NCBI GenBank assembly: GCA_012839865.1
Contig: DUMO01000024.1
Coordinates: forward strand, 19,075 to 83,074
Length of the DNA stretch: 64,000 bases
Reading direction: 5' to 3'
From: Clostridiaceae bacterium
GTDB lineage: Bacteria; Bacillota; Clostridia; CAYPLH01; DUMO01
Part shown: one piece after another, positions 27,396-44,100 of the stretch
How the letters are laid out: every line of letters starts with the position of its first letter
Numbering within the stretch: the first letter of the stretch is position 1
Notes under the pieces: model-generated
Database searches by the model: none
What the model was told of the DNA's origin: nothing
What the model saw: the letters and a program-made list of their open reading frames with translations, nothing else
Translations under genes and position numbers: made by a program

Positions 27396-27477
27396 GTGAC
27401 GTACTCCCTCCTACGCTCTCACTAAAGTGAGCAAGGCGGCTTAGAAGCGGAAGACTTCTTGCTGCTATATGTTAAAC
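27396..27477. repeat. Copy A of a structured ~80-bp intergenic repeat, immediately 3' of the response-regulator stop
   Basis: It shares GACGTACTCCC and CTTCTTGCTGCTATATGTTAAAC blocks with copies at 32566-32640 and 60847-60906. It contains an internal hairpin CTCAC-TAAA-GTGAG. Confidence 0.7.
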
Positions 27478-28155: not shown

Positions 28156-29185
28156 CCTTAATCACCTCTCGATTAACCGGCAGCTTTATGGTATATGTGG
28201 TCCCTTTCCCTTTTTCAGACTGTATCTTTAAACTGCCCCTCAGTTGATTTACCCTGTCCTCTATACCTATCAATCCATAAGAAATCCCCTTGTTTCTTGC
28301 GTTTATCAAGGTTTCCTCCACGTCAAACCCAATACCGTCATCAGATATAACCAGCATTAAATATTTCGTGCCATAATCAAGCTTGATTTGAGCATGGCTT
28401 GCCCTGGCATGCTTTTTTATATTATTAAAAGCTTCCTGGATAATACGATAAACTGCAACTTGTATGATAGGCTCAATTTCTTTATGTACTGGCTTCATTT
28501 TTATGTCCAGTTCTATTCCTGTCTCGTGCATTATCATTTTTACGGTCTCGGAAATTGTTTCATTCAAACCCAAATCATCCAGCGCCATGGGTCTTAAATC
28601 AAAAATGATATCCCTTACTTCCTTAAGGGCCCTTTTGACACTTTGTTTCAGGTCTTCCAATTCTTTAAGGCCTTCGTTGAAATCCCTTTCAATCACCATC
28701 TTGCAAATATCTGCCTTCATTACTGCATTGGCCATATGCTGCGCCGGCCCGTCATGAACATCCCTTGCAATTCTCTTTCTTTCGTTTTCCTGGGCCTCCA
28801 ATATCTTTATGCTCAATTGTATTTCGGAATGGGCCTCAGCACCTTCCAGGGCTGTAACAACATCCCCCTCCAGGTACATTAAAGCAACACTCATCTGACT
28901 CATCACTTTTTCAGCACTTTCAATATTCTGCAATGATTTTTTCAATGCTATTTCTATTATTGACCTCCTTTTTAACAGTTCCTTCTCTTTGTTTTTTTCG
29001 ATAATCAGTGCTATTCGAGTGTCTTCTGCGTTTTTATAGGCAGCTTTAATATCTTCTTCCGTAAATGTATCAAACTTTTTTGAAACCTCTGCAAGTTTTT
29101 GTCTCGCAACTTTATCCTGCTTTTCCAGTTCATCCACCCTTGCAATAGTCTGCTTGATATCCTGTTTAATTGCAGCCAACTCCAT
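28136..29185 (-). CDS. DegS-like cytoplasmic sensor histidine kinase
   Basis: No TM segment. An N-terminal DegS-type coiled-coil sensor domain and the H-box [18 protein letters not shown] (compare DegS IHDGPAQMLANVMMRSEL). HATPase_c follows. The gene overlaps the regulator start by 20 bp. Confidence 0.85.
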
Positions 29186-31212
29186 TTCAAGATTCTCGGA
29201 GACGGAGTCGGTGACGGTGTCGGTGTCGGAGTCGGTGTCGGAGTTGGCGTCGGTGTCGGAGTCGGTGTCGGAGACGGTGTCGGTGTCGGACTCGGGCTCG
29301 GACTCGGGCTCGGGCTCGGCGACGATGTCGGCGTCGGGCTCGGGCTCGGACTCGGCGACGGACTCGGGCTCGGGCTCGGGCTCGGACTCGGACTCGGGCT
29401 CGGACTCGGGCTCGGCGACGGACTCGGCGACGGACTCGGGCTCGGTGACGGAGTCAATTCAGCCGGGTTTATAACAGCGCTGATTACCCTGACTTCCTGG
29501 GTTACCGTAAAGGTTACGGGAAGCATATTATCTGCCGAAATTTCCACGTTTGCCGTATATACTCCGGCCGGCAGCCCGTCTTTTGCCCTTATGGTAAATG
29601 TGGTGGAAGGTGTCACCTCATCAAGATTTTTAGCTTCAGGCTGGGTGATTTCAAAGGCATCCGCATCATCCCCGCTCAAGGTTACCGTAAGATTTGCAAT
29701 ATCCTCAGTTGCCTCCCTTGTCACTGTTATACTCCTTGTCTCCTGCATACCGGAAGCATAACCTATACCAAGTATCGTCATAACCTGATCGTCGATAGGT
29801 ACTATACTGCCTGTTGCCCACCTGGCATAAAGCGTGACGTTACTGTCACCCATGACAAGGGTCGAGCCTTGCAAATAATCCGCTCCTTTTCCATCGGCTT
29901 TGGTGTTCCAGCCTTTAAAGACATGACCTGTTTTTGACAGTTCATTGATGTTACCCGTGACAGTAACAGTTTGTCCCGGCTTATATACATTGGTGTCAAC
30001 GGGCACATCGCCCCCGGTATTCCCGTTCCCGTCATAGGTTACAGTGTAAAAGTCAACTTCCGCAACATTGAAGGTGTATCCATTAGGCAGCTTGCCGGGT
30101 GCAGTTATGTTGAGATCTATTGTAAAGTTCTCTTCACCCGTCAGTGTCAGCAAATAAGGCTGACCGTTCTCCACCTGCTCATCGTTTATGGTAATAATCG
30201 CGCCTTCCAGTGAAACTTCCGGTATAATGCTGAAACTCTCCAGTTCTTTTGGTATTTCCAGTACATAGTCGCTTATGTCCTTATTGAATGAAGGCATCAG
30301 ATCAAACCCGGGCAGTCCTTCAAATATCACGTTGTCTATATATGCCGGTGCAATGGCGGAGGACTCTACAGGCGCAGGATACATATCCACTACAAACATG
30401 TCTTTAAATTTATAGCTGTCATTTACCTTTATTTCAGCTGCCAGTACACACTGCCCTGCCTTCAGCGCTTTAAGGTATCCATCCTCTAACACTGCATTTT
30501 GGTCATCGGAGGCCATCCATATACCCGCTGCTTCGTCATTTTCGCCTGTTATTCTCAGAATTCCGCCTCCGAGATAAACCGGGTTTTCCTTTGGTATAAC
30601 CGAATATACATCCAAAGTATCATCAGATGAAACCTTCTGGATATCTCCCGTTATGCGCATAAGTTCCTTCTCACCCTGGGGTACCACAGGTTGCTGGTTG
30701 CCTTTAAAATGATAAATATAGTTCTTTATAATTGTAATCGGCTCATCGCCAAACCCATACACAATTTCATTCTTGCTTGTAATCAAAAGGGTGCCGAACC
30801 CCCGCCTCATATAAGCCGGATTATCCGTTATTTCAATGGCATTTTCCCTGTAAAAACCCTCGATGAGATTATGCCGTATTCCAAGGCCATAAGTACCCGG
30901 CCAGAGGAACGTGGTTTCCCCGTCAATTTTAAAGTGTGTCGGGACGGTGACGTATATGGTTGAATCATCTTCCACATTTACATTCTGGTAACCGATTATA
31001 TATTCATTACCTCCCGCGTCTTTCAGATACACTTCCCACTGGTCCGGATCATCCCTGAGGTAGCTTAGGTTGTCCCCCTTTATCTGAATAACCCTGTATT
31101 TGTCTTCATGATACAATTTGTTGGGAGAAATATATGAATATTGTACATTCGGCATATCCACAAAGGACGGCATGGCAACCACGTAGGCTTTTAAGTATGA
31201 CGTATGATTCAC
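29011..31212 (-). CDS. Cell-surface-type protein with cadherin-like and Listeria-Bacteroides repeat domains, ending in an SP/TP linker; probably a fragment or fusion
   Basis: A cadherin-like beta-sandwich ([10 protein letters not shown]...SFSIIPEV), a Listeria/Bacteroides repeat ([13 protein letters not shown]...[12 protein letters not shown]) and a C-terminal (SP)n(TP)n tract. There is no signal peptide. The last about 60 codons are an out-of-frame read through the degS-like start. Confidence 0.5.
29186..29460. repeat. Tandem 12-bp repeat array (GAGTCGGTGTCG-like units) encoding an (SP/TP)n linker on the minus strand
   Basis: A direct read shows about 22 near-identical hexamer and dodecamer units. 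They translate to PSPSPS...TPTPTP in the frame of the upstream surface-protein gene. Confidence 0.9.
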
Positions 31213-31361
31213 TCTTTTTACCGATACTACAAAATCGTATACGTTTACGTCATTGAGAGCTGTGGGTACAAATTTCCAATGAATAAGTTCCGTATATCAG
31301 GGATGAAGAAATGCACATGTTTGTAGGACAAGTTTATCTTAAGTAGAAAGGAGGTGCAAAC

Positions 31362-31529
31362 ATGCGGAAATTTAAAAAGTCCTATGATGCGGGAAAAGTA
31401 AATATATCTTATTCTTCAGGCGGAAAGATGATATTCTTTAAAAAATTACTGGCTGCGATCTTGTCAATACTTATATGCGCTACACTTCCGGTTTGTATTT
31501 TTTACGAAAGTCTGAGGGCGAGCAGGTGA
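31362..31529 (+). CDS. Small (55 aa) predicted membrane protein
   Basis: A strong RBS AAAGGAGG lies 7 nt before the ATG. It has a basic N-terminus and one TM helix (IFFKKLLAAILSILICATLPVCIFY). It falls below the ORF-track length cutoff. Confidence 0.35.
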   Translation: MRKFKKSYDAGKVNISYSSGGKMIFFKKLLAAILSILICATLPVCIFYESLRASR

Positions 31530-31564
31530 AGTATTGCTTAAAATGCTTGATCAGGTATTTTGGA

Positions 31565-32344
31565 TCAGAAAACCCGCATTCCAACGAAATATCTATCACC
31601 TTTTTTTGTGCCCAGAAGCAACTTGGCGGCATGTTCACACCTGCTGTAATATAGCATGTTCAAAAAGGTTGAACCGAATTTTTCTTTAATGTCGTGGGAT
31701 AAATGGTAAAGACTTATATCAAGCTCTTCTGCAATATCTTTAAGACTTGGATTCAACTCAAATTTGCTCCCCAGGCAATTTATAATTTTTCTGAGCCTTT
31801 GCACCAGCTTTTCATCGAAGGCTTCAGTGCCGTATCCCCAGCGTAAAAAGTCGAAATTGTATGTAACATGAACAAGAAGTTCTGTTAAATTATTCTTTAT
31901 GCTTGCCGAATACCCGGGTTGGAGCCTGTCGCCATTTACCGCCAGAACGAGCCTGGCGACATGCTCTTTGAGTTCATTGTACCTTTGGGGCAGTTCCCCT
32001 TCGAAATAGGCGGAACAGCAATAGATATACAAGTACTTGTTATCCGGAAAAAGGTTTCGAAAAAATTCCCCTGAAATCTGTATAATCAGCGTTTCATTAT
32101 TTTCGCTTTGACTAATGCAATGCAGCTCGTTAACATTTACAAGTGCTATATCGTTTTCTTTTAATTGAATTTTTTCATCACCGATGACCATATTGACTGA
32201 ACCCTTCCGGACTTGCACAATTTCCATAGTATCATGCCAATGATAGGGATACTTCCCAACATAACCGGAAAACATTTTTACAGGCAGTCCTTCGGAAAAA
32301 TCAAATAACTCAGGACGCATACATTCCCCCGTTATATAAAGCAA
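31565..32344 (-). CDS. AraC family transcriptional regulator (cupin sensor + AraC HTH)
   Basis: An N-terminal cupin-like domain and a C-terminal AraC-type HTH pair. Confidence 0.8.
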   Translation of the reverse strand: MLYITGECMRPELFDFSEGLPVKMFSGYVGKYPYHWHDTMEIVQVRKGSVNMVIGDEKIQLKENDIALVNVNELHCISQSENNETLIIQISGEFFRNLFPDNKYLYIYCCSAYFEGELPQRYNELKEHVARLVLAVNGDRLQPGYSASIKNNLTELLVHVTYNFDFLRWGYGTEAFDEKLVQRLRKIINCLGSKFELNPSLKDIAEELDISLYHLSHDIKEKFGSTFLNMLYYSRCEHAAKLLLGTKKGDRYFVGMRVF

Positions 32345-32565
32345 TGTTATAAAACATTTTATCCATTAATAGAGAAACCGTCAATTGATTTTAGAAAGCT
32401 GCAGTTGAAAATTGTCGAAATTTTTTCATTTCAGTAGTAGTTTTTGCAAACAATCAGCTCTGGTGAATTAATAAAATGTCAGTTTTTTGAACAGATGAAA
32501 TGAATACAGAACAATAACAATTAGCTTTATATTGTTAGAAAGCCAGGTACATGCCTGGCAATTCA

Positions 32566-32640
32566 TCTCCCGCCTACGCTCCCGCTAAAGTGGGCAAGGT
32601 GGCTTAGAGGCGGGAGACTTCTTGCCTCTATATGTTAAAA
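32566..32640. repeat. Copy B of the structured intergenic repeat
   Basis: TCTCCCGCCT...AGGCGGGAGA forms a perfect 10-bp outer stem. The inner hairpin CCCGC-TAAA-GTGGG shows compensatory changes relative to copy A. It ends in CTTCTTGCCTCTATATGTTAAAA. Confidence 0.7.
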
Positions 32641-32715
32641 TTGTTACAGTGTTTTGCAAATGCCTTAAAGCTTCAGACCAAAATCGGTCATATACTCATT
32701 CTAATTGCGAGTTCC

Positions 32716-33813
32716 TTAGAAATATACGGGTTTTCCGGTCCTGGAAGATTCATAGATAGCTTCAAGAATCTGTGTCACCACATAAGCTTCCTCTGGTTTT
32801 ACAACCGGTTCTGTGTCTTTCAGTATACACTCAATCCATAACCTTGCTTCCCTGTCCCCGGCACTTTCTGATCTTCCTTCATAATAGTCGGCACCTTTTG
32901 CCTGCAGAGAAATATTTTTGGTATACAGTCTTCCTTTATCCTCACCGTTGATTCTCAGGCCTTCTTCCATGTCTGCGCCGCCTTCGGTGCCGCACAAGGT
33001 TGTCTTTGCTTCTTTAACATCCAATGTATTGAGGGCCCAGCTGGACTCAAGTATTATGGTAGCACCGTTTTTCATTGTTACAAACCCAAAGGCGGAATCC
33101 TCAACTGTGAATTTTTCAGGATCCCAGGGACCCCATGCATTTGCTGCATTTTTCCTTCCGGAGAGTTTATGGTATACATTCCCAACTGCGTAATTGGGCT
33201 CATAATTATTCATCATCCATAATGTAAGGTCCAGTGCATGGGTGCCTATGTCAATCAACGGACCTCCACCCTGAAGCTCTTCATTCAGGAACACTCCCCA
33301 GGTAGGCACGGCACGTCGGCGAACGGCATGAGCCTTCGCAAAATAAATCTCGCCTAAATCTCCCCTGTCACATACTTCTTTCAGATAAAGTGAATCTGTT
33401 CTGAATCTGTTTTGATAAGCTATTGATAGTTTCTTACCTGTCTTTCTTGCTGTGTCGCACATAAGCTTGGCTTCTTTTGAATTCATGGCCATGGGTTTTT
33501 CACACATGACGTGTTTCCCTGCTTCAAGGGCTGCCACTGTCATTTCAGCATGAAATTTGTTTGGAGTGCAAATATGTACCACATCAATACTTTTGTCAGC
33601 AAGCAACTCCTCATAGGATTGGTACACCTTTGAATTCTCACAACCAAACTCCTTTGCCGCTTTTATTGCATTGCCGTTAACACTGTCATAAAACGCCACC
33701 ATTTCAACACTATCCAATTTTTTCAGAGCGGGCATGTGCTTTCCAAAAGCAATACCTCCGCAACCGATAACACCTGCTTTCAATTTTTTACCCAAGTTTT
33801 CCACTCCTCTCAA
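32716..33813 (-). CDS. Gfo/Idh/MocA family NAD(P)-dependent oxidoreductase
   Basis: An N-terminal Rossmann motif (GVIGCGGIAFGKHMPAL) and the Gfo/Idh/MocA C-terminal domain. Confidence 0.9.
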   Translation of the reverse strand: MRGVENLGKKLKAGVIGCGGIAFGKHMPALKKLDSVEMVAFYDSVNGNAIKAAKEFGCENSKVYQSYEELLADKSIDVVHICTPNKFHAEMTVAALEAGKHVMCEKPMAMNSKEAKLMCDTARKTGKKLSIAYQNRFRTDSLYLKEVCDRGDLGEIYFAKAHAVRRRAVPTWGVFLNEELQGGGPLIDIGTHALDLTLWMMNNYEPNYAVGNVYHKLSGRKNAANAWGPWDPEKFTVEDSAFGFVTMKNGATIILESSWALNTLDVKEAKTTLCGTEGGADMEEGLRINGEDKGRLYTKNISLQAKGADYYEGRSESAGDREARLWIECILKDTEPVVKPEEAYVVTQILEAIYESSRTGKPVYF

Positions 33814-33964
33814 TTTTAAATTTTATTGTTTTGCATAATCAAAAAATATAATTAAACAGGCCTCGATACATGTAGTAAGCAGTCAGCCTTATTAAAGTCA
33901 TTTTTTACTCTGCAATGTTTCGCATATACAGGCTAACAATTCTAAAAATCGTCAGTAATATTCC

Positions 33965-34687
33965 TTAAATCTTCTCCAGCGGTTCAACCTTGGGAGCTTC
34001 AATCTTATCCAGCCATATTGTTGGTTTTGACCATTTTACGGCGTTGGTAATTACTCTTTGAATTTGCTCATTGTAATATATGGGAAAAGTTTCATGCCCG
34101 GGCTGGAAGTAAAATACCTTGCCATAACCTCTCTTAAAGCAGCATCCGCTTCTGAAAACATCTCCTCCTTTGAACCAACCGATAAACACCAGCTCATCGG
34201 GAGTTGGTATATCAAACCTTTCACCATACATTTCCTCGTGTTCAAGTTCAATATATGGCCCTATCCCGTCTGCAATCGGATGATTAGGCTCTACAACCCA
34301 CAAGCGTTCACTTTCTTCAATTTCTCGCCATCTTAAAGTGCATGCGGTTCCCATCAGTCTTTTAAAGACTTTTGAAAAGTGTGCGGAGTGCAGGGCAATA
34401 AAGCCCATCCCCTTAAGAACCTTCGTGCATACCTTCTCAACAATATCATCTCTCACCTCGCTGTGAGCCATGTGCCCCCACCAGATAAGCACATCCGTAT
34501 TGTCAAGGACTTCATCCGTCAAACCGTGCTCCGGTTCATCCAATGTAGCTGTCCGCACTGTAATTTCCGGATCTTTCCCTAAAAAGTCCGCAATAGCCCC
34601 ATGAATTCCTTTAGGGTAAATTTCAGAAACCCTTGCTTCACTTTTTTCATGACGATACTCATTCCATACAGTAACCCTGATTCCCAT
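33965..34687 (-). CDS. ThuA-like (trehalose-utilisation) class-I glutamine-amidotransferase-like protein
   Basis: The ThuA family pattern ([11 protein letters not shown]...VLIWWGH...). The start was taken at MGIRVTVW. Confidence 0.8.
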
Positions 34688-34768
34688 ATCATCCTCTCCC
34701 TTTCTTGTAATAGTCAATATTAAACATAATCTGCCACTTACATTTGAGGTGCAAGTATTCATAAACCG

Positions 34769-35761
34769 TCATCCAAGTGTAGACTCCCTGATAATTAACT
34801 CGTGCTCCAGATAAATTGTTTGAGGTTCAATTATTTCTCCGCCAATCACTTTAAGCAGAAGTTCCATGGATACGCATCCCAAATCATATTGCGGCTGTGC
34901 TATGGTGGTAAGCCCCGGGCTGTACATTGATGCAAAATTAATATCATCAAACCCCATAACTGCTATGTCTTTGGGTACTTTAAGCCCTTTTGCCCAAATT
35001 GATTTGATTGCTCCTATTGCCATTGAATCAGAAATACAGAAAACCGCCGTAGGCACATTATTTTCTATAAAAAATTGATTCATTGCCCTTATTCCGCTTC
35101 TAAACCCATAATCCCCATGTTTAATCAATGACAAATCAACCAGAATTCCTTCTTCCTCCAAGGCTATTTTATAGCCTTCTTCTCTTTGTTTTGTTGAAAT
35201 GAAGCTGTTTTCGCAGCTTATTAGCCCGATTTTCCTGTGTCCCTGCTTTATAAGATGCTTAACGGCCATATAGGCTGCAGCTTTATTGTCTATGGAAACA
35301 TGAGAAGCCCTGGCTTCCTCCTTATATTCACAGCATTGAACCACCGGAAACCGCATTGCAATTTGGGAAAGTTCCTCTTCGCTCATTTCAGATGCAAGAA
35401 AGATCACTCCGTCAGCAAGCCTGTTTTTCATAAGTTCGAGGTATACCTTTTCCCGGGAAACATCTGAATTGGTATTGCAAAGCATGACATTATAGCCGTT
35501 TTTGTGAGCAACATCTTCCATGCCCTTAACGATCATCGAGTAAAAGGGGTTTGATATGGTAGGCAAAAGAACCAGCGCCATTTTTGTCTGCATCAGCCGT
35601 AAATTTCTTCCGAGCAGGTTAGGCTGGTAGTTTAGCTGCCTGATTGCGTCAAGGACTGCTTTCCTGGCTTTTGGAGAAACTTTTGAACTGCCGTTGATAA
35701 CCCTTGAAACTGTTGCCACTGAAACACCGGCTTCCTTTGCAACATCCTGTATTGTAGCCAT
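34769..35761 (-). CDS. LacI family transcriptional regulator
   Basis: An N-terminal HTH (MATIQDVAKEAGVSVATVSRVING) and a periplasmic-binding-protein-like sugar-binding core. Confidence 0.85.
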   Translation of the reverse strand: MATIQDVAKEAGVSVATVSRVINGSSKVSPKARKAVLDAIRQLNYQPNLLGRNLRLMQTKMALVLLPTISNPFYSMIVKGMEDVAHKNGYNVMLCNTNSDVSREKVYLELMKNRLADGVIFLASEMSEEELSQIAMRFPVVQCCEYKEEARASHVSIDNKAAAYMAVKHLIKQGHRKIGLISCENSFISTKQREEGYKIALEEEGILVDLSLIKHGDYGFRSGIRAMNQFFIENNVPTAVFCISDSMAIGAIKSIWAKGLKVPKDIAVMGFDDINFASMYSPGLTTIAQPQYDLGCVSMELLLKVIGGEIIEPQTIYLEHELIIRESTLG

Positions 35762-35807
35762 CCTGCACCTTCCTTCGTCACTAATAAAGCTATGAGGATT
35801 AATCATA

Positions 35808-35821
35808 TGTAATCGATTACA
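35808..35821. promoter_or_regulatory. Perfect 14-bp palindrome TGTAATCGATTACA, a candidate LacI-family operator
   Basis: It matches the LacI/CcpA-type operator architecture TG-N-AA-N-CG-N-TT-N-CA. It lies about 47 bp upstream of the LacI start. Confidence 0.55.
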
Positions 35822-36291
35822 GTATTGCTGTCATTCACTATGAAATGTAACACTTACTAATATAAGCTTATTCAATATGCCATGCCAGGTTGAATTGCTT
35901 TGTTGTAATTTAAAAATGTAATGGATTACATGAAATATTATAGTCAATGGAATTGTTAATTTCAATAGATTAATTGAAATTTTATGCACATGATGTGCTG
36001 ATAAATTACTGCTCAAATAAACAATCAAGCAACCAGCTATATAAGTCAGGGGTTGGATGAATGAAATGTATGCAGAACACCTGCCAGGGTAAGACAATAT
36101 TACTTCATGCATATAATGTTTTGCCTGGAGACTGGTGTGTGTACGTAAAACAGCATAAAAAAGCTGAACAGTAACTGCACGGGTTACTGTTCAAAAGTAT
36201 TTGTCTCTTTTAATTATCACACTGACTCAGTGTAATTCCCTTATTTAATTTCATCATTTATAAACCTGCCGGCTCATGATGACATATATAA

Positions 36292-37071
36292 TCACGCCAG
36301 TTCTATAAACTCCTTCAATGCCCTGGCATCTTCAATAAATTGCTCATCAGTTTCGCCCATTACAAATTCTATCATTGCAAAACGGTCTTCCTTAAGCTCC
36401 TTTATAACTTTAAAATACTCAACCCAGTTTTCCTTCCCGTCTTTAAGAGGTTGCCTGCCTGCTTCTGAAACATGATGCACATGTACATTTTCAAGCCATG
36501 GAAGTATATCCTTGAGACTGCTGATTCTTTCTTCAACAGTCATGGTTTTAAGGGGTTGCCAGTAAGACCGCATGTTTGCATGATTAACTCTTTCCAAAAG
36601 CTTTACAGCGGATTTGGAAGTGTCCGTAAGTGTATTGTTATGGTATTCATATGCAACCTTTATTCCGTATTCCCAGGCCAGTTCAGCAATATCATATGAT
36701 TCCTTCACACATTTATCCCACCATTCGTCGTCTGCAACCTCCGAAGCTTTATTGCCTGCCCAAACCCTTATAACTGGAGCATCCAGCTCCTTTGCAGAAT
36801 CAATTACCCGTTTGAAAGCACTCACACCGTCATTTTCCGTGCCAATACGATGGTAGGAACCGTAAGATGCAACCTTTAACCCGCTATCCTCTGTCATTTT
36901 GCGAACTTCACGGGCGAGCTTCGTGTCGCCGTGGGGGACATGCACGTCTCCGCCCCATTCAATTCCGTCCAAACCTGCTCTTTTTGTAAGCTCAATAATT
37001 TCCTTCGGAGTTTTTTTCCTGAATGTAACAGACACAATACCTGTATAAATCATTTGTGTTTCTCCTTTCAA
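36292..37071 (-). CDS. Sugar phosphate isomerase/epimerase (xylose-isomerase-like TIM barrel)
   Basis: An AP_endonuc_2 / xylose isomerase-like TIM-barrel pattern. It is the first gene upstream of the LacI-ThuA-oxidoreductase cluster. Confidence 0.8.
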   Translation of the reverse strand: MKGETQMIYTGIVSVTFRKKTPKEIIELTKRAGLDGIEWGGDVHVPHGDTKLAREVRKMTEDSGLKVASYGSYHRIGTENDGVSAFKRVIDSAKELDAPVIRVWAGNKASEVADDEWWDKCVKESYDIAELAWEYGIKVAYEYHNNTLTDTSKSAVKLLERVNHANMRSYWQPLKTMTVEERISSLKDILPWLENVHVHHVSEAGRQPLKDGKENWVEYFKVIKELKEDRFAMIEFVMGETDEQFIEDARALKEFIELA

Positions 37072-37544
37072 AATAAAAGTAATAAAAACCTGTTTATGTG
37101 AATACTATGGAATACTGAAAAAGTATTTTATTTGAACTTGCAACAGTATGTCTGATAAACCGCTGTAGTATTTGAGCATCATCTGACACAACAAATGCGG
37201 TGTCAATGACAGCTACTGGATAAATGAATAGTAACCGGATTTGAAATTTAACACAGGATGACAGTGGTAAAAAACAATGTTTCCAAAGATGTTTTGCAGG
37301 CTGTTTTTTAGAAGTATTTTAAGGTAAACCTCTGCAGCAGCCTTACAGGGAGCATGATTATTGCTATTAAAATGAGTATTGTGGCTTCAGCAATCATTTC
37401 TAAAAGGCAAATAAGCCTTTTCAAGAATAAACACCTCCGTTTTTTAATATTCATATATATTATTCCCACTTTATCCCCATAATATAATATGAATTTAACT
37501 AAAAAACGGTTACAGCCACAAAGCAGGCAAAAATCAATTTTATT

Positions 37545-38867
37545 TTAAAACATCTCTACTTTATCCCTGCTTACCCGCGCATATATCGAAGCTTTTTTTG
37601 GGGGGCGTTCGGAACTTGTTGAAATTGCTTTTCTTAAAATATTCTCTGCAGTTTCCACTGAATTTTCCCTGGATGTATAAAGAACTGCCAAAGGATCCCC
37701 TTCATTCACCCAGTCTCCCGGTTTTACTTCCAACACAATTCCTGCGCTGTGATCAATCATATCCTCCTTGCTCTCGCGTCCGGCTCCAAGTACTACCGAA
37801 GCAATGCCGCATTGCTCGGTATTCATGGATGAAATCCAACCGCTGCCTTTTGCTTTAACAACATGAGAGATTGGCGCTTTTCTAAAAAGAGCGGTTTTAT
37901 CAATTACCGTTACATCACCTCCCTGGGATATAACCATTTCTCTGAATTTTTCCAAAGCTGCACCACTTGCAAGGGCTTGCCTTGCAAGATGCATGCATTC
38001 CTCCAGGCTGCCCTTTTGCGCCAGATACAGCATATTTGCGGCAAGATGGATGCATATTTCGGTAAAATCGGAAGGGCCATGACTATTCAAGGTATCAACA
38101 GCCTCCGCCACTTCCAATGAATTTCCAATGGCTTTACCCAGTGGTTTGTCCATATCTGTGATTAAAGCAACTGTTTTTCTCCCAGCATGCTCACCTATTG
38201 CCACCATTTCCTGCGCCAGCCTGATGGAATCCTCTATAGTTTTCATAAAGGCTCCGCTGCCTGTTTTAACATCAAGTAAAATCGCATCAGAACCAGCGGC
38301 GATTTTTTTACTCATTATGCTGGCTGCAATCAGTGAAATATTATCTACAGTTGCAGTTACATCTCTCAGTGCGTAGAGTTTTTTATCTGCGGGAGCCAGG
38401 TTGGCGGTCTGGCCAATGATACACAGGCCGATTCTTTTTACTATGTCCACAAACCGTTCTGAAGAAATAGTCGTAGAAAAACCAGGAATTGATTCAAGCT
38501 TGTCCAGTGTACCGCCGGTATGCCCAAGACCCCGTCCGGACATCTTTGCAACTGGTACCCCGCAGGAGGCAACAATCGGAGCAACAACCATGGTGGTTTT
38601 ATCCCCGACCCCGCCTGTGCTGTGCTTGTCAACCTTGATGCCGGGAATGGAGGAAAGGTCCACCATATCTCCCGATTGCGCCATGTATTTTGTCAGTGTG
38701 GCGGTTTCAAAACTTGACATACCTCGAAAATAAACAGCCATCATCAGGGCAGATGCCTGATAGTCGGGAATCTGTCCATGGGTATATCCTTCAACAAAGT
38801 ACTTTATTTCCTCATCACTAAGCTCTCCACCGTTTCTCTTTTTCAAGATAATGTCATACATCCTCAT
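37545..38867 (-). CDS. pdp: Pyrimidine-nucleoside (thymidine) phosphorylase
   Basis: MRMYDIILKKRNGGELSDEEI and the glycosyltransferase family 3 pattern, including a TGGVGDKT motif. Confidence 0.9.
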   Translation of the reverse strand: MRMYDIILKKRNGGELSDEEIKYFVEGYTHGQIPDYQASALMMAVYFRGMSSFETATLTKYMAQSGDMVDLSSIPGIKVDKHSTGGVGDKTTMVVAPIVASCGVPVAKMSGRGLGHTGGTLDKLESIPGFSTTISSERFVDIVKRIGLCIIGQTANLAPADKKLYALRDVTATVDNISLIAASIMSKKIAAGSDAILLDVKTGSGAFMKTIEDSIRLAQEMVAIGEHAGRKTVALITDMDKPLGKAIGNSLEVAEAVDTLNSHGPSDFTEICIHLAANMLYLAQKGSLEECMHLARQALASGAALEKFREMVISQGGDVTVIDKTALFRKAPISHVVKAKGSGWISSMNTEQCGIASVVLGAGRESKEDMIDHSAGIVLEVKPGDWVNEGDPLAVLYTSRENSVETAENILRKAISTSSERPPKKASIYARVSRDKVEMF

Positions 38868-39063
38868 TTTGATAACCACCCACTCCAGATTTTAAAATAA
38901 ACCCTATTTTTCACAGGACCAAACCTTTTCCCGTTATTGTTTATTTCTGCACTGACTTCTAAAACCTTTTGCAGTGAATTTTTCATTTATTAAGTAAGAA
39001 GTTGCAAGTCAAGTATAAAATATATTTTAAGTCAAGATAATTCTTCATCCCCGGCAGCTAAAG

Positions 39064-39762
39064 TTATGGACTTTTGGTCAAACTCCTGTAATTTTCTTTA
39101 ATATACTTTACAAGGGAGCTTGTTCCCAGCCTGGAGGCCCCAAGATTGATAAAGTCCATGGCATCATCAAGTGTTTTTATACCGCCGGCTGCTTTTATTT
39201 TCACATTGCCTCCCACATTTTCAGAAAACAACCTGATATCCTCCCTTGTCGCACCTCCTGTTGAAAATCCTGTCGACGTCTTTATAAAATCCGCACCTGC
39301 ATTTGTGACAACTTTGCACATTTTAATTTTCTCTTCCCGGGTAAGAACACAGGTTTCAATAATGACCTTCAAGATTTTGCTTCCTATTGCTGATTTTACA
39401 GATTTTATTTCATCTTCCACAGCCTTGAATTCACCTGACTTAACCAGCCCGATATTAACCACCATGTCAATTTCGTCGGCTCTGTTTCTTATTGCATCCT
39501 CCGCTTCAAAAATTTTTGCTTCTGTGGTGCTGTAACCGTTTGGGAAACCAACCACTGTGCATATAGCCAGACGGTTTCCCACATACTCCTTTGCCTTTGC
39601 AACATATGCCGGAGGAATACACACAGAGGCAACATCATACAAAATTCCTTCGTCGCATAATGCTTTGATTTCATTCCATGTTGCCGCTACATTGAGCAGG
39701 GTATGATCAACCAACTTTAATACTTTTTGAATTTCCAAGCTTGATTCTCCTTTATGCCACAT
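39064..39762 (-). CDS. deoC: Deoxyribose-phosphate aldolase
   Basis: A DeoC TIM barrel with the Schiff-base lysine region ([10 protein letters not shown]). The start was taken at the internal MWHKG. Confidence 0.85.
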
Positions 39763-39823
39763 TCTATTTCCGCTTCTCCTGCGAGCTGCTTTTTTGACAC
39801 ACTCTGATTCTTGCTTTCTCTGG

Positions 39824-40777
39824 TTACACTCTGTTCCTTGCTTCACCCTTTAGGAATGCTTCAATATTGAGGTAAATTTCATAAACCAGTTTTTTTCTGG
39901 CTTCAACGCTTGCCCAGGCAATATGCGGAGTTATAAGCAGCCTGTCGGGATTTTTAATTTTAAGAAGCGGATTATTCTCTTTTATTGGTTCGTTCTCCAG
40001 CACATCCAATGCTGCACCCAAAATAAGTCCTTCATCAAGCGCCCTGGCCAGGCCGGCTTCATTTACAATAAATCCCCTGCCTAAGTTCAGCAAGATCCCG
40101 GTGTTTTTCATTAATTTCAATTTCTCATATGTTATAAGATTTCTTGTTTTGTCATTTAAAGGGGCATGAATTGAGACAATATCCGATGTTTTCAAAAGTT
40201 CATCCAATTCAACCTGTGGGTAATCAGGGCTGTTATTTCTGCCTGAAGTTGAATAGTAAATAACCTTGCACCCAAAGGTTGATGCAATTGAAGCTACTGC
40301 TTTGCCTATTGTGCCCAATCCGATAATTCCCCACGTTTTGCCTTTTATCTCCCAGAAGGGTCTGGAAATGTTCGTGAAGATATCACTTTTAGCATATTCC
40401 CCTGACTTTACAAAGCTGTCATAATAAGAAAGCTGTTCAAGCAGGTAAAAAAGCATTGCAAATGTGTGTTGAACAACGCTGTTTGTGGAATAGCCTGATA
40501 CATTGGTTACGGCAATTCCTCTTGACTTTGTGTACTCCAGATCAACATTGTTTGTTCCTGTTGCTGCAATGCAAATGAGCTTCAGCCTGTCTGCATTTGC
40601 CAGGCTTTTTTCATTCATCAGAACTTTGTTGGATATTACAATATCCATATCCTTAACTCTCTCCAGAGTTTCATCCGGTGCGGTTGTCTTATATACTGCC
40701 ACATTGCCGAATTTGTTAAAAATTGAAAGATCAACGTCATCTCCCAGGGTTTTTGCATCAAGAATACAAATATTCAT
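39824..40777 (-). CDS. D-isomer-specific 2-hydroxyacid dehydrogenase (glycerate/hydroxypyruvate reductase-like)
   Basis: An NAD-binding motif ([13 protein letters not shown]) and the catalytic R/E/H arrangement of the 2-Hacid_dh family. Confidence 0.85.
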
Positions 40778-41091
40778 ACTTTACACATCCTTTACTGCAT
40801 TTTTTATTTTAGTATTTACGATATAAAAAAATGTTGTCAACAGACAGTTAAATTGTACCACAAATTGGATACCATGACCAGAGCAAACCTGTACAGCTGA
40901 ACAGGTACCCTGTACCGGTTTCCTTTATGAAAAATCATATGAAATAAACTTGGAAGAAGAGAAATAGTAATAATAGAACAGGGTAACCGGAAAATACGGT
41001 TACCCTAAAAAAATTATGAGGTAAGAATTTGTTTGTAAACTTGATATATACACAGGTCGAAATCTAGTCCACAAAGTGTTGTTTTCAATTG

Positions 41092-41137
41092 ATCTGACAG
41101 AAATAATGCATAACCCATGCTGTTATTTCTGTCAGAT
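41092..41137 (-). terminator. Perfect 15-bp-arm hairpin 3' of the lyase gene
   Basis: ATCTGACAGAAATAA, a 16-nt loop, then TTATTTCTGTCAGAT. It lies 40 bp after the lyase stop and has no strong U-tail. Confidence 0.45.
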
Positions 41138-41176
41138 GAATAAATATCAATCAGGTTTGGTATTTGCAAAGCAGTG

Positions 41177-44100
41177 TTATTCTGCAGTGCTGTTTATTAC
41201 CACCTTGCTGAGGTTGATTGACCAATATGGTGCAGCAGGCGGATCATTACCGTCATGGACGGTTTTATTGAGTGCGTTTACTTCACCGGTCGGTCTGATC
41301 TTGATCTTATATATACCATCGCTCAGCACAGGGCTTGTGTATATGAGCACATCCGAGGTTTTAGCTTCCGCATACACATCTACAAGCTGCTCTGCAATAA
41401 CAACTTTATCATTTGCATCAAGGATGCTGATTGCAACGATACCTCCATATGGGGCGTTCTCTGCGTATACCGATATGCCAATGCCCTTGAATTTGTAAAC
41501 TACATACGCATCTGTGGCACCCCTGTCATTGTATATAGTCTTAGCCCCGCTAACTGCCCATTTGGTTGTTGCCTTGCCATGTAAATTCATGGCAGTACCG
41601 TCGGAAAATGTATATTGGTTAAGTTCATCGCCTTGATTTGCCTTGTCAAAATTCAGTGTCACCTCAGTCGCTACTGGTGCTGTGGCTTTGTTTATAACTG
41701 TAATTTTGAAGAGGTTGACAGACCAGTACGGTGCAGTCGGAGGATCATTGCCATCGTTGACGGTTTTGTTATTTGTATTTACTTCGCCTGTAGGTCTGAT
41801 CTTGAGCACGTAGACACCCTTGGCAAGTTCGGGGCTGGTGTACACAAGGGCATTGGCTTCCTTGGCCTCAGCATACAGGTCCACAAGCTCTTCTGCCTGT
41901 ACAACCTTTCCGTTTTCGTCAAGTATGCTTATTGCAACAATTCCGCTGTACGGAGCCCGTTCAGCATACAGCATGACCTGAGTGCCTTCAAATTTGTAAG
42001 CCACGTAAGCATCTGCCGCACTCCTGTCGTTGTACAGGCTCTTTCCTCCACTGACGGCCCATTTGGTTGTTGCCTTGCCATACAAGTTACCGGCAGTACC
42101 GTCGGAGAATGTGTACTGATTTACTTCTGTGCCCTGGTTTGCTTTATCGAAGTCCAGAGTCAGCTCTTCCGGGGTCTCCTGCTGGGCAGGTGTCGGTGTC
42201 GGCGTAGGTGTTGGTGTAGGTGTGGGTGTAGGTGTGGGATCAGGTGCCTTGCTGGCAATGGTGACTTTACTTAAATTGATAGACCAGTAAGGTGCCGTCG
42301 GAGGATCATTGCCATCGTTAACGGTTTTGTTGTTTGCATTTACTTCACCGGTAGGTCTTACATTGAGCACATAAATACCCCTGGCAAGTTCCGGACTGGT
42401 AAATACAAGAACATTAGCCTCTTTGGGGTCTGCATACAGATCCACAATCTCATTGTGTACAACGCTGCCATTTGCATCAAGTACGCTTATTTCAACTTTA
42501 CCGCTATATGGTGCGCGTTCAGCATACAGGGAAATCTGTGTACCCTCAAACTTGTAAGCAACATAGGAATCTGTTGCACCCCTGTCGTTGTACAGGGTCT
42601 TTCCTCCACTGACTGTCCACTTGGTTGTTCCTTTGCCATACAAAGTAGCTGCAGTACCATCGGAGTATGTGTACTGGTTGACATCGGTACCCTGGTTGGC
42701 CTTGTCAAAATCCAGAGTCAGTTCTGCCGGTATTGCAGGTGTAGGTTCAGGTGTCGGCTCAGGTGTCGGTAAAGCCGTTCCTTTAACAGCAACACCAACT
42801 CTGCTCACATTCACAGACCAGTATGGAGCAGTCGGAGGATCATTGCCATCGTTAACAGTCAGGTTGTTCTTATTGACTTCACCTGTAGGTCTTATCTTTA
42901 GCTTATATGTGCCCAAATCAAGTCTGGGGCTTGTGTAAACAAGTACATTCTGTTTTCTTGCTTCTCCATAAAGATCAATTATTTCTTCTGCATGTATGAC
43001 TTTGTCATTTGCATCCAGTATGCTTACGGCTGCCTGACCGCTGTAAGGAGCATTTTCACCAAACAGCAATATCTGTGTACCGGTGAAGGTAAATATAACA
43101 TAGCTGTCCGGTGCGGCTCTGTCATTATACAAGCTATTGGCTGAACTTATTGTCCAGTTGGTAGTTCCTTTACCGAATATTGTGGTTCCAGTTCCGTTAT
43201 CATAGGTAAACTGGTTAATTCCGGTACCATGGTTGTCTTTGCCGAAATTGTAATATTCAATTACTTCACCGGGCCATGGAGTCGGTGACGGGTCTGGAGC
43301 GGGTGTAGGTGTAGGAGTCGGAGTCGGTGATGCATCCGGTACGGGTGTCGGTGTCGGTGCTGCGGGTACAGGTATCGGGGTAGGCATCGGTATTATACCC
43401 CAGTAAAGGTTTTCAAGGAAACGGATATCCGGGGCGGCGCCAGAAGCAAGCCTGGAATTTCCGCTTGCACTTAAAGTCCTGGATACGGCATAACCTTGAA
43501 TATCAGAATTGCCACCCAGCGCGAGTTCTGCATTCGGTGCATAGATAACACCTGCATCAACTTTTACATTTCCATCAGCTTTCACTGAACTTCCACCTGC
43601 TACGAGATTGCCAACCAGTTTGCTGTTCCCGCCAAATTCAACATCAGCCTTCTGAGCATATATGGAGCCGTAAATTGCAGTATTCCCGCCAATAGTTACC
43701 TTATTGCTTCCCAGATAGTAAATTATAGCATCGTCGGGGTTGCCTCCTGCATTGATTCCCATGCCTTCAATCTCAATACTGTCTTTTACAAACAGAATCA
43801 ATTTGCCATTCCCTGTTTTGTTTATTTTTATGCTTCCATTCTGGGCTATTTTTAATGTATTGCAGGTTATAATTATATCCTCGTCGCCAATATCCACCCA
43901 TAACGGCTTCCTTATCAGTACATTGCCATAGGCAGCACTTTCGCTTATGGCAGCTTTTCCTACAGCTAATGGACTGGTGGCCAGGTCTCCCCTGTTCTCG
44001 AGAACGGGAACATCAGGAGCATTCGGCATGCGATAATCTCTGCCTGCTGATGCAAAGGTCTCACCCTTCACAGTTGCAGAACCGGAAACAGATATGCCAT

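Follow-up and report, generated by a model that had tools for sequence, protein, structure and literature searches.

A predicted lacI-thuA-gfo operon in a Clostridiaceae bacterium: candidate for oxidative (3-keto) cleavage of glycosides

Which reaction is served by a small locus in which a LacI-type repressor, a ThuA-like protein, a Gfo/Idh/MocA oxidoreductase and an enzyme with a xylose-isomerase-like triosephosphate isomerase (TIM) barrel are encoded side by side? The locus lies at positions 32,716 to 37,071 of a 64,000-nucleotide stretch of contig DUMO01000024.1 from a Clostridiaceae bacterium (assembly GCA_012839865.1), hereafter called the window. An initial annotation, made from the sequence alone, had proposed a 3-keto-glycoside pathway under LacI control. 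Our analysis suggests, with a probability of roughly 0.6, that lacI, thuA and gfo form an autoregulated operon whose DgpA-type oxidoreductase would oxidise C3 of an imported glucoside and thereby open it to hydrolase-free cleavage, with ThuA as a partner. This type of pathway is already known, and the window locus is a variant within it.

The four genes were found where the initial annotation had placed them, all on the minus strand, and Pfam confirmed their families:

32716-33795, minus strand: gfo, putative DgpA-family Gfo/Idh/MocA glycoside 3-oxidoreductase, 359 amino acids (open reading frame 32716-33813; Pfam GFO_IDH_MocA and C-terminal domains, E 1e-31)
33965-34687, minus strand: thuA, GATase1-like fold, 240 amino acids (open reading frame 33965-34762; Pfam PF06283, E 7e-34, 118 bits against a cut-off of 33)
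34769-35761, minus strand: lacI-family repressor gene, predicted first gene of the operon, 330 amino acids (open reading frame 34769-35806; Pfam LacI helix-turn-helix and Peripla_BP domains (Peripla_BP_1/3), E 1e-31)
36292-37053, minus strand: TIM-c, AsbF-like protein of the xylose-isomerase-like superfamily, predicted separate transcription unit, 253 amino acids (open reading frame 36292-37071; Pfam AP_endonuc_2, the xylose-isomerase-like TIM barrel, E 4e-21)

The shorter starts (lacI 35761, thuA 34687, gfo 33795 and TIM-c 37053) are the better supported ones and were preferred according to the gene calls on a 100% identical stretch of a biogas-fermenter metagenome contig.

The oxidoreductase and its ThuA partner

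Among proteins of known structure, Gfo matched two characterised C-/O-glycoside 3-oxidoreductases of gut Clostridia over their full length, DgpA1 of strain W974-1 (9m3d, 430 bits) and DgpA of strain PUE (7xr9, 423 bits). The next best PDB entry reached 121 bits, with glucose-fructose oxidoreductase at 98, levoglucosan dehydrogenase (6a3f) at 79 and inositol dehydrogenases at 60-90. Gfo is 56.5% identical to DgpA1 and 55% to DgpA, these two being 57.6% identical to each other, and thus falls in the same subfamily at 55-57% identity. The glucose pocket of DgpA has been defined by crystallography and mutagenesis, and comprises K100, R159, W166, D182, H186, F223 and E264 as well as F189, which could not be mapped (PMC9939296). 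Six of the seven mappable residues are identical in Gfo (K100, R159, W166, D182, H186 and E264), and F223 is replaced by Trp, as also occurs in most ThuA-linked orthologs; two related loci, L001 and L073, retain Phe. On these comparisons, Gfo is assigned to the DgpA family.

Other identities fared poorly. The NCBIfam models gave scores far below their cut-offs for IolG (TIGR04380, 117 bits against 355), LgdA (105 against 650), BT_2158 (53 against 750) and BT_2159 (43 against 650), the match to LgdA being partial and confined to the N-terminal half. Membership of the LgdA or BT_2158/BT_2159 groups of 3-dehydrogenases is ruled out accordingly. An inositol or sugar-alcohol dehydrogenase, the identity that the initial annotation had regarded as fatal to its own proposal, is likewise ruled out by the gap between 60-90 bits for those enzymes and 423-430 bits for the DgpA proteins, as well as by the TIGR04380 score.

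What is known of this family points to glycosides. In PMC11239390, DgpA is described as oxidising puerarin at C3'' when 3-oxo-glucose is present, and its close homolog D3dgpA as oxidising many C- and O-glycosides, the O-glycosides then yielding the aglycone and a hexose enediolone.

The ThuA protein is 61-66% identical to a structural-genomics ThuA-like entry (1t0b) and 55% identical, over 241 residues, to ThuA of the thuR-thuEFGK-thuAB locus on pSymB of Sinorhizobium meliloti, of which it qualifies as an ortholog. As in the S. meliloti and Agrobacterium loci, thuA is followed by a Gfo/Idh/MocA gene and a LacI-type regulator is present. The "ThuAB arrangement" initially described hence holds for gene order, for family and for ThuA, but not for the oxidoreductase, since Gfo shares only 28% identity with ThuB of S. 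meliloti over 280 of 360 residues and falls in another subfamily. Gfo is accordingly no ortholog of ThuB, and the window does not contain a true thuAB locus. Further differences separate the two systems: the rhizobial locus includes an ATP-binding cassette (ABC) transporter and a divergent ThuR, whereas the window locus, in an anaerobic Firmicute, has no transporter and a LacI protein that would be co-transcribed with thuA and gfo and is only 29% identical to ThuR. The thuAB genes have reportedly been linked to trehalose use since at least 2013. ThuAB is described in PMC8121099 as forming 3-keto-disaccharides.

Homologs of this ThuA with 62-82% identity are spread over Bacillota, Chloroflexota, Planctomycetota, Verrucomicrobiota, Deinococcota and two archaeal metagenome-assembled genomes (Brockarchaeota and Bathyarchaeia), and the Gfo protein encoded beside them varies from 76% down to 28% identity, being sometimes undetectable. 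Such a discrepancy between a ThuA conserved at 55-82% and a Gfo at 28-76% would be easier to reconcile with action on one small molecule common to these systems than with a structural subunit that co-evolves. The predicted structure of ThuA returned, in a Foldseek search, structural-genomics ThuA-like entries and GATase1 folds only, without a functional clue.

The module in related genomes

We compared the locus with 80 genome loci containing ThuA (L001-L080) and several metagenome contigs. The arrangements most relevant to the window were the following:

Pseudoclostridium thermosuccinogenes, several assemblies: lacI-thuA-gfo only, with unrelated flanks
L002: lacI-thuA-gfo-TIM-a
L004: lacI-thuA-gfo-Gfo2-TIM-a-TIM-b
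L091: TIM-c-lacI-gfo-TIM-b, without ThuA
Paenibacillus, Enterococcus, Terrilactibacillus, Anaerobacillus and Listeria monocytogenes: AraC gene and gfo-TIM-a-thuA-TIM-b-Gfo2
Trichococcus (L073): lacI-gfo-thuA-TIM-b-Gfo2, with no TIM-a detected

In L072 and L079, TIM-a sits a few kb upstream. The lacI-thuA-gfo cassette itself recurs in P. thermosuccinogenes, L001, L002 and L004 between unrelated flanks, and AraC genes flank the module in L004, L042 and Listeria. The TIM-a proteins match the O-glycoside β-eliminase (OGE) AtOGE (8bvk, E 1e-21; PMC10628242 for the identity of this entry), and TIM-b matches a 2-hydroxy-3-keto-glucal hydratase (8ro4, E 1e-7), the Clostridial TIM-b proteins of L004 and L091 being 43-44% identical to DgpG. 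Gfo2 resembles DgpA2 and DgpF; overall, the DgpF-like and DgpG-like genes of the relatives show 39-44% identity to the dgp proteins. Judged by homology, the relatives encode in their module the enzymes of the oxidation-elimination-hydration-reduction routes known from strain PUE, Bacillus smithii and Agrobacterium tumefaciens (PMC10628242), and ThuA in addition; the name ThuA has no occurrence in the text of that paper.

Known systems differ from the window in instructive ways. The operons GlycDH-AtOGE-AtHYD-Gfo of A. tumefaciens and LgdA-B1-B2-C of B. smithii follow the same pathway logic (PMC10628242), and the relatives of the window locus carry both AtOGE-like and AtHYD-like TIM barrels; the window has neither of these TIM types, and its oxidase is of the NAD-dependent DgpA type rather than a flavoenzyme such as GlycDH. 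In authentic dgp clusters, recognised by DgpA proteins of 98% and 82% identity, DgpB (PF19906), DgpC and a major facilitator superfamily (MFS) transporter are encoded with DgpA (arrangement DgpA-CGDB-DgpC-MFS) and an AraC/GH39-like regulator is used, without ThuA. The window, on the other hand, lacks DgpB, DgpC and the MFS gene and contains ThuA and a LacI repressor instead, so that it is not a dgp C-deglycosylation cluster of the kind represented by dgpA-H of strain PUE; a search for DgpB homologs was negative at E < 1 throughout the 64 kb, and DgpG gave no significant match in the window. The broad-specificity BT2156-2160 and AL1-5 systems of gut Bacteroidota likewise combine a Gfo-type 3-dehydrogenase with an enzyme of the sugar-phosphate-isomerase fold in a non-hydrolytic cleavage via a 3-keto intermediate, but they operate in the periplasm (Tat and lipoprotein signals), include a DUF1080 lyase and have a regulator of the SusR type.

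Of the five module enzymes, the window locus retains ThuA and the DgpA-like protein only, and on this comparison it is a trimmed version of the module. The contrast is sharpest with L001, the closest relative (82% identity in ThuA), where a 247-amino-acid TIM-a gene lies between gfo and an intact AraC gene. In the window, the position of this OGE-like eliminase gene is taken by a 371-bp spacer after gfo, and the following features are found there and beyond:

32567-32639, minus strand: structured repeat element in the spacer after gfo (121-nucleotide folded stretch, -41 kcal/mol, z = -2.95)
31495-32320, minus strand: gene for an AraC-family regulator, its reading frame shifted in a run of A residues near 31607-31625

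The repeat element is about 75 nucleotides long, with a core AAGAAGTCTCCCGCCTCTAAGCC...AGCGTAGGCGGGAG, and may end the operon. A second copy occurs on the minus strand at about 27404-27476, after a response-regulator gene. A scan of 30000-41500 with Rfam gave no match at E <= 1, the copy after gfo included, and the second copy lay outside the scanned region. When the AraC protein of L001 (5594-6445, 283 amino acids, intact) was aligned to the window by tblastn, it matched in two pieces in frames -1 and -2; the frameshift could be that of a true pseudogene or an assembly error in a homopolymer.

The transporters encoded beside ThuA modules differ from locus to locus, so this context does not reveal the substrate: CUT1 transporters occur with GH66 in Paenibacillus, monosaccharide-type ABC transporters (Peripla_BP_4, BPD_transp_2) in Enterococcus, and none in Clostridia. 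The window agrees with the last group and with what was first reported for it, as the gene calls include no transporter within 10 kb of the locus. In Paenibacillus timonensis (L042, 3518-6844), the module lies beside a gene of the GH66 (dextranase) family and a CUT1 ABC transporter, neighbours that hint at α-1,6-glucoside substrates in this species.

A full module is also found in L. monocytogenes NCTC7974 (L101, 6161-10760), comprising Gfo, an OGE-like TIM barrel, ThuA, a hydratase-like TIM barrel, Gfo2 and AraC, as in L042 and L078. This is presumably the lmo2159-2163 region, an assignment for which product names are the only support. The literature searched yielded for the Listeria module one proteomics table naming Lmo2160 and Lmo2161, and neither a functional study of the five-enzyme module, nor an account of ThuA and a DgpA-type oxidase as a LacI-controlled pair, nor a paper on strain W974-1 or its DgpA1.

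Operators, transcription units and the TIM barrel

The intergenic region between TIM-c and lacI contains the signals expected of an autoregulated operon:

36164-36194, minus strand: intrinsic-terminator-like hairpin predicted to end the TIM-c transcript (12-bp stem and T run)
35937-35965, minus strand: sigma-70-like promoter, TTGAAA, 17 nucleotides, TATAAT (11 of 12 matches, a consensus match only)
35917-35930, no strand assigned: O2, TGTAATGGATTACA, one mismatch to the palindrome, overlapping the predicted transcription start
35808-35821, no strand assigned: O1, TGTAATCGATTACA, a perfect palindrome that precedes the lacI start codon by 46 bp

The promoter match is the top-ranked sigma-70-like site in 10.5 kb, with O2 directly downstream of it, and the centres of O1 and O2 are 109 bp apart, so that the two sites are roughly in helical phase. 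The operator palindrome of the initial annotation is present exactly at the predicted position. A perfect 14-bp palindrome would be unremarkable by itself, as the window contains nine of them against 4.8 +/- 2.0 in shuffled sequences. The significance of O1 comes instead from the second copy at the promoter, from the fact that the TGTAANNNNTTACA pattern occurs at these two sites only in the whole 64 kb, and from its conservation in seven other loci. In L001, L002, L004, L082-84 (three P. thermosuccinogenes assemblies) and L091, the lacI orthologs are preceded by the motif TGTAA[AT]C[CG][AG]TTACA, in each case with the O1-equivalent site at the same position, and L001, like the window, has two operator-like sites, there 111 bp apart. 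It is on this phylogenetic footprint that the operator prediction really rests. A palindromic candidate operator of the TGnAAnCGnTTnCA type at the promoter, conserved together with the regulator gene, is what an autoregulated LacI operon displays, and the lacI product presumably controls its own operon. The LacI protein reached no NCBIfam equivalog cut-off, its best matches being CytR, CcpA, PurR and RbsR, and its orthologs (63-74% identity) lie ahead of thuA, of the DgpA-like gene or of both in L001, L002, L004 and L091.

TIM-c stands apart from this arrangement. The terminator-like hairpin (36194-36164, -15.2 kcal/mol, z = -3.0 against shuffles) lies between the TIM-c stop codon and the lacI promoter, the TIM-c gene has promoter-like sites of its own with no operator-like site upstream, and no further operators were detected in the window or ahead of TIM-c with up to three mismatches allowed. 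The region would therefore be read as two transcription units, lacI-thuA-gfo (35761 to 32716) and TIM-c (37053 to 36292), and the LacI control initially attributed to the whole gene set is retained for thuA and gfo and dropped for TIM-c.

The nature of TIM-c was approached through a profile of its 34-sequence family, which matched AsbF (3dx5) in the PDB at E 1e-20 over its full length, followed by IolI (E 1e-4) and ketose 3-epimerases (about 1e-3), with no match to OGE, DgpC or hydratase. Neither TIM-c nor the profile matched the OGE structure 8bvk at E < 0.1, and TIM-c did not match the hydratase 8ro4; DgpG reached the TIM-c gene at E 0.78 only, and DgpC aligned with TIM-c at E 0.013 and 22% identity. 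Identity to TIM-a was 24% over 177 residues, and to TIM-a and TIM-b 20-24%, which places TIM-c, by sequence comparison, in a third TIM type distinct from both. Residues R96, E136, H138, H191 and E229 of TIM-c align with R102, E142, H144, H198 and E253 of AsbF, which we take to include its metal ligands and catalytic His, and both proteins share an E-x-H-x-NTLTDT motif. Overall identity is about 21%, an invariant Gln stands in place of D172 of AsbF, and K200 has no conserved counterpart. The AlphaFold2 model of TIM-c (mean confidence, pLDDT, 96) gave its best fold-search TM-score, 0.81, to AsbF; in Foldseek, DgpC, AsbF and ketose 3-epimerases came out level at about E 1e-13, so that the fold does not tell the subfamilies apart.

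Several candidate identities were discarded on these results. The C-deglycosidases DgpBC/CarBC are ruled out, there being no DgpB and a likeness to DgpC at fold level only; OGE and hydratase find no support in sequence, and hydroxypyruvate isomerase has no NCBIfam or PDB match. The proposal that this TIM barrel is a DgpC/CarB-type or OGE/hydratase-type enzyme was thus not borne out, AsbF being the only clear sequence relative in the structural database. AsbF of Bacillus anthracis is also the only strong relative with a structure, and TIM-c differs from it in lacking a petrobactin context and in having, often, Gfo neighbours.

It is an even question whether TIM-c has anything to do with the ThuA/Gfo operon or instead serves a different pathway as an AsbF-like dehydratase or isomerase. 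Functional independence would fit the promoter-like sites of its own, the missing operator and the strong terminator before the lacI promoter, and the nearest characterised relative is a 3-dehydroshikimate dehydratase rather than any 3-keto-glycoside enzyme. Moreover, P. thermosuccinogenes, L002 and L004 have the cassette without TIM-c beside it, and some homologs (L092, L097-L100) are solitary or adjoin a 2-hydroxyacid dehydrogenase gene, a gene of this kind being present upstream in the window too. Against independence, TIM-c, lacI and the DgpA-like gene are found in this order in the window, in L001 and in L091, three different genomes whose TIM-c proteins are only 59-68% identical, and other homologs occur within Gfo/TIM clusters; a Gfo gene lies within three genes of the TIM-c homolog in five of the ten distinct neighbourhoods. 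AsbF catalyses an elimination beta to a ring ketone, a chemistry that would suit a step after C3 oxidation. By this analogy TIM-c plausibly performs an enolising elimination on a ring ketone, the very chemistry needed once C3 has been oxidised. Weighing both sides, participation of TIM-c in the lacI-thuA-gfo pathway has a chance close to, and perhaps a little below, one half, and a functional trio of TIM-c, ThuA and Gfo is plausible and unproven. The 3-keto-glycoside pathway put forward at the outset hence gains support for the oxidase pair, from DgpA kinship, from the pocket and from the module in relatives, but not for the role of TIM-c.

Within this family, the 2-hydroxyacid dehydrogenase adjoins the TIM-c homologs in L097 and L098, and one is also encoded three genes upstream of TIM-c in the window.

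Proposed mechanism and competing readings

A sequence of events can be outlined for the lacI-thuA-gfo operon. Without inducer, the LacI repressor would occupy both operators, O2 where transcription starts and O1 within the leader, and an imported sugar or glycoside would release it. The DgpA-type Gfo, which like ThuA shows no N-terminal signal sequence on inspection of the translations, would act in the cytoplasm with enzyme-bound NAD and convert the glucosyl C3 hydroxyl of an imported glucoside into a ketone, yielding a 3-keto-glycoside. Since a C3 ketone acidifies the hydrogen at C2, the aglycone could leave by β-elimination without a hydrolase; this elimination might be spontaneous for good leaving groups, or be catalysed by TIM-c or by enzymes encoded elsewhere in the genome. 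The resulting enediolone would be hydrated and then reduced to glucose, possibly by the same DgpA-type enzyme. ThuA, as the ortholog of the rhizobial ThuB partner, would act together with the oxidoreductase, and the catalytic residues of TIM-c would be arranged as in a metal-dependent dehydratase or eliminase that works by enolisation.

A number of observations weigh against this scheme. DgpA also binds and oxidises free glucose (PMC9939296), so that the physiological substrate may not be a glycoside, and with neither a transporter nor a glycosidase at the locus the substrate cannot be read from its surroundings. No recognised gene for a homolog of TIM-a, TIM-b, DgpB or DgpC was found anywhere in the 64-kb window, while TIM-c has its own predicted promoter and terminator without an operator and half of its homologs have no nearby Gfo. 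ThuA is absent from authentic dgp clusters and from L091, and is thus not universally required by DgpA-type enzymes; no paper defining its biochemical function was found in the literature searched. Finally, the frameshifted AraC gene could mean that the locus is decaying.

The first of these points leads to the reading that the pair acts on a free, monosaccharide-like molecule, such as glucose, 3-keto-glucose (reductively), 1,5-anhydroglucitol or levoglucosan, and forms a sugar 3-dehydrogenase/reductase unit that breaks no bond. We consider this unlikely. The DgpA pocket does hold β-D-glucose, of which only the C1 hydroxyl goes unrecognised, and glucose is oxidised (PMC9939296); the operon includes no eliminase gene, and the full module of Enterococcus lies beside a monosaccharide-type ABC transporter. 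Even so, most relatives, L001 included, have an OGE-like β-eliminase gene beside the ortholog, which implies a leaving group at C1, and characterised members of the family act on glycosides (PMC11239390). The levoglucosan dehydrogenase model, matched in part at 105 bits, might seem to favour a free sugar, but the score stays far under the cut-off of 650 and the match covers the N-terminal half only.

A different doubt concerns the operators, which might be catabolite-responsive elements (cre) bound by CcpA instead of, or besides, the local LacI protein. The cre consensus is TGWNANCGNTNWCA, and O1, TGTAATCGATTACA, fits it; the local LacI protein itself scored 278 bits against the CcpA model, short of the cut-off of 442. 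The orthologous sites, however, often have CC or GG at the centre, as in TGTAATCCATTACA (L002, L082-84), in TGTAAACCATTACA (L001, L091) and in O2, which breaks the cre core, and they travel with the lacI gene through differing genomic contexts. Sites centred on CC or GG are unfit as cre, and repression by the local LacI protein would be the more economical account; binding by CcpA is rather improbable.

It is very improbable that the locus is a decaying remnant without a working pathway, left by loss of the eliminase and inactivation of AraC, because the missing OGE-like gene with its repeat-bearing 371-bp spacer and the homopolymer frameshift in AraC are set against lacI, thuA and gfo genes that are intact and highly conserved, two intact operators, the same minimal three-gene cassette in several assemblies of the cultured P. 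thermosuccinogenes, and the chance that a frameshift in an A-run is an assembly error.

Returning to hydrolase-free cleavage by the lacI-thuA-gfo operon, we speculate, as a long shot, that ThuA might be the general component so far missing from the picture of NAD-locked Gfo-type sugar 3-dehydrogenases, either recycling the enzyme-bound cofactor or processing a common 3-keto product (2-hydroxy-3-keto-glucal or 3-keto-glucose). The ThuA/DgpA-like pair would then be a self-sufficient unit of hydrolase-free deglycosylation, and the adjacent AsbF-like TIM-c might belong to a third, new class of eliminases or dehydratases of 3-keto-glycosides and replace the lost OGE-type enzyme.

The 3-keto route allows the non-hydrolytic cleavage of C-glycosides, thioglycosides, levoglucosan and unusual disaccharides, and its general status has been recognised only recently. 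The pairing of a DgpA-type oxidase with ThuA occurs in many Firmicutes, including Listeria, Enterococcus, Paenibacillus and cellulolytic Clostridia, and the minimal LacI-ThuA-DgpA cassette offers a compact and clean handle on the function of ThuA. From this cassette one might also learn which glycosides, of plant or microbial origin, anaerobic biomass degraders cleave by the 3-keto route. Its practical value would be moderate, in the discovery of enzymes that deglycosylate or derivatise glycosides.

Directly upstream of TIM-c, at 37545-40777 on the minus strand, lies a nucleoside-catabolism group encoding a pyrimidine-nucleoside phosphorylase, the deoxyribose-phosphate aldolase DeoC and a D-2-hydroxyacid dehydrogenase. 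We discarded the idea that TIM-c belongs to this pdp-deoC cluster, as the adjacency recurs in no other locus compared. Between pdp and TIM-c, a 38-codon open reading frame (37308-37424, minus strand) with a good ribosome-binding site encodes the hydrophobic peptide MKRLICLLEMIAEATILILIAIIMLPVRLLQRFTLKYF. The region is flanked by two large proteins without Pfam domains, one of 1761 amino acids (41177-46462, minus strand) and one of 723-733 amino acids (29011-31212, minus strand), the latter with long Pro-Ser/Pro-Thr linker repeats typical of the cell-surface proteins of cellulolytic Clostridia.

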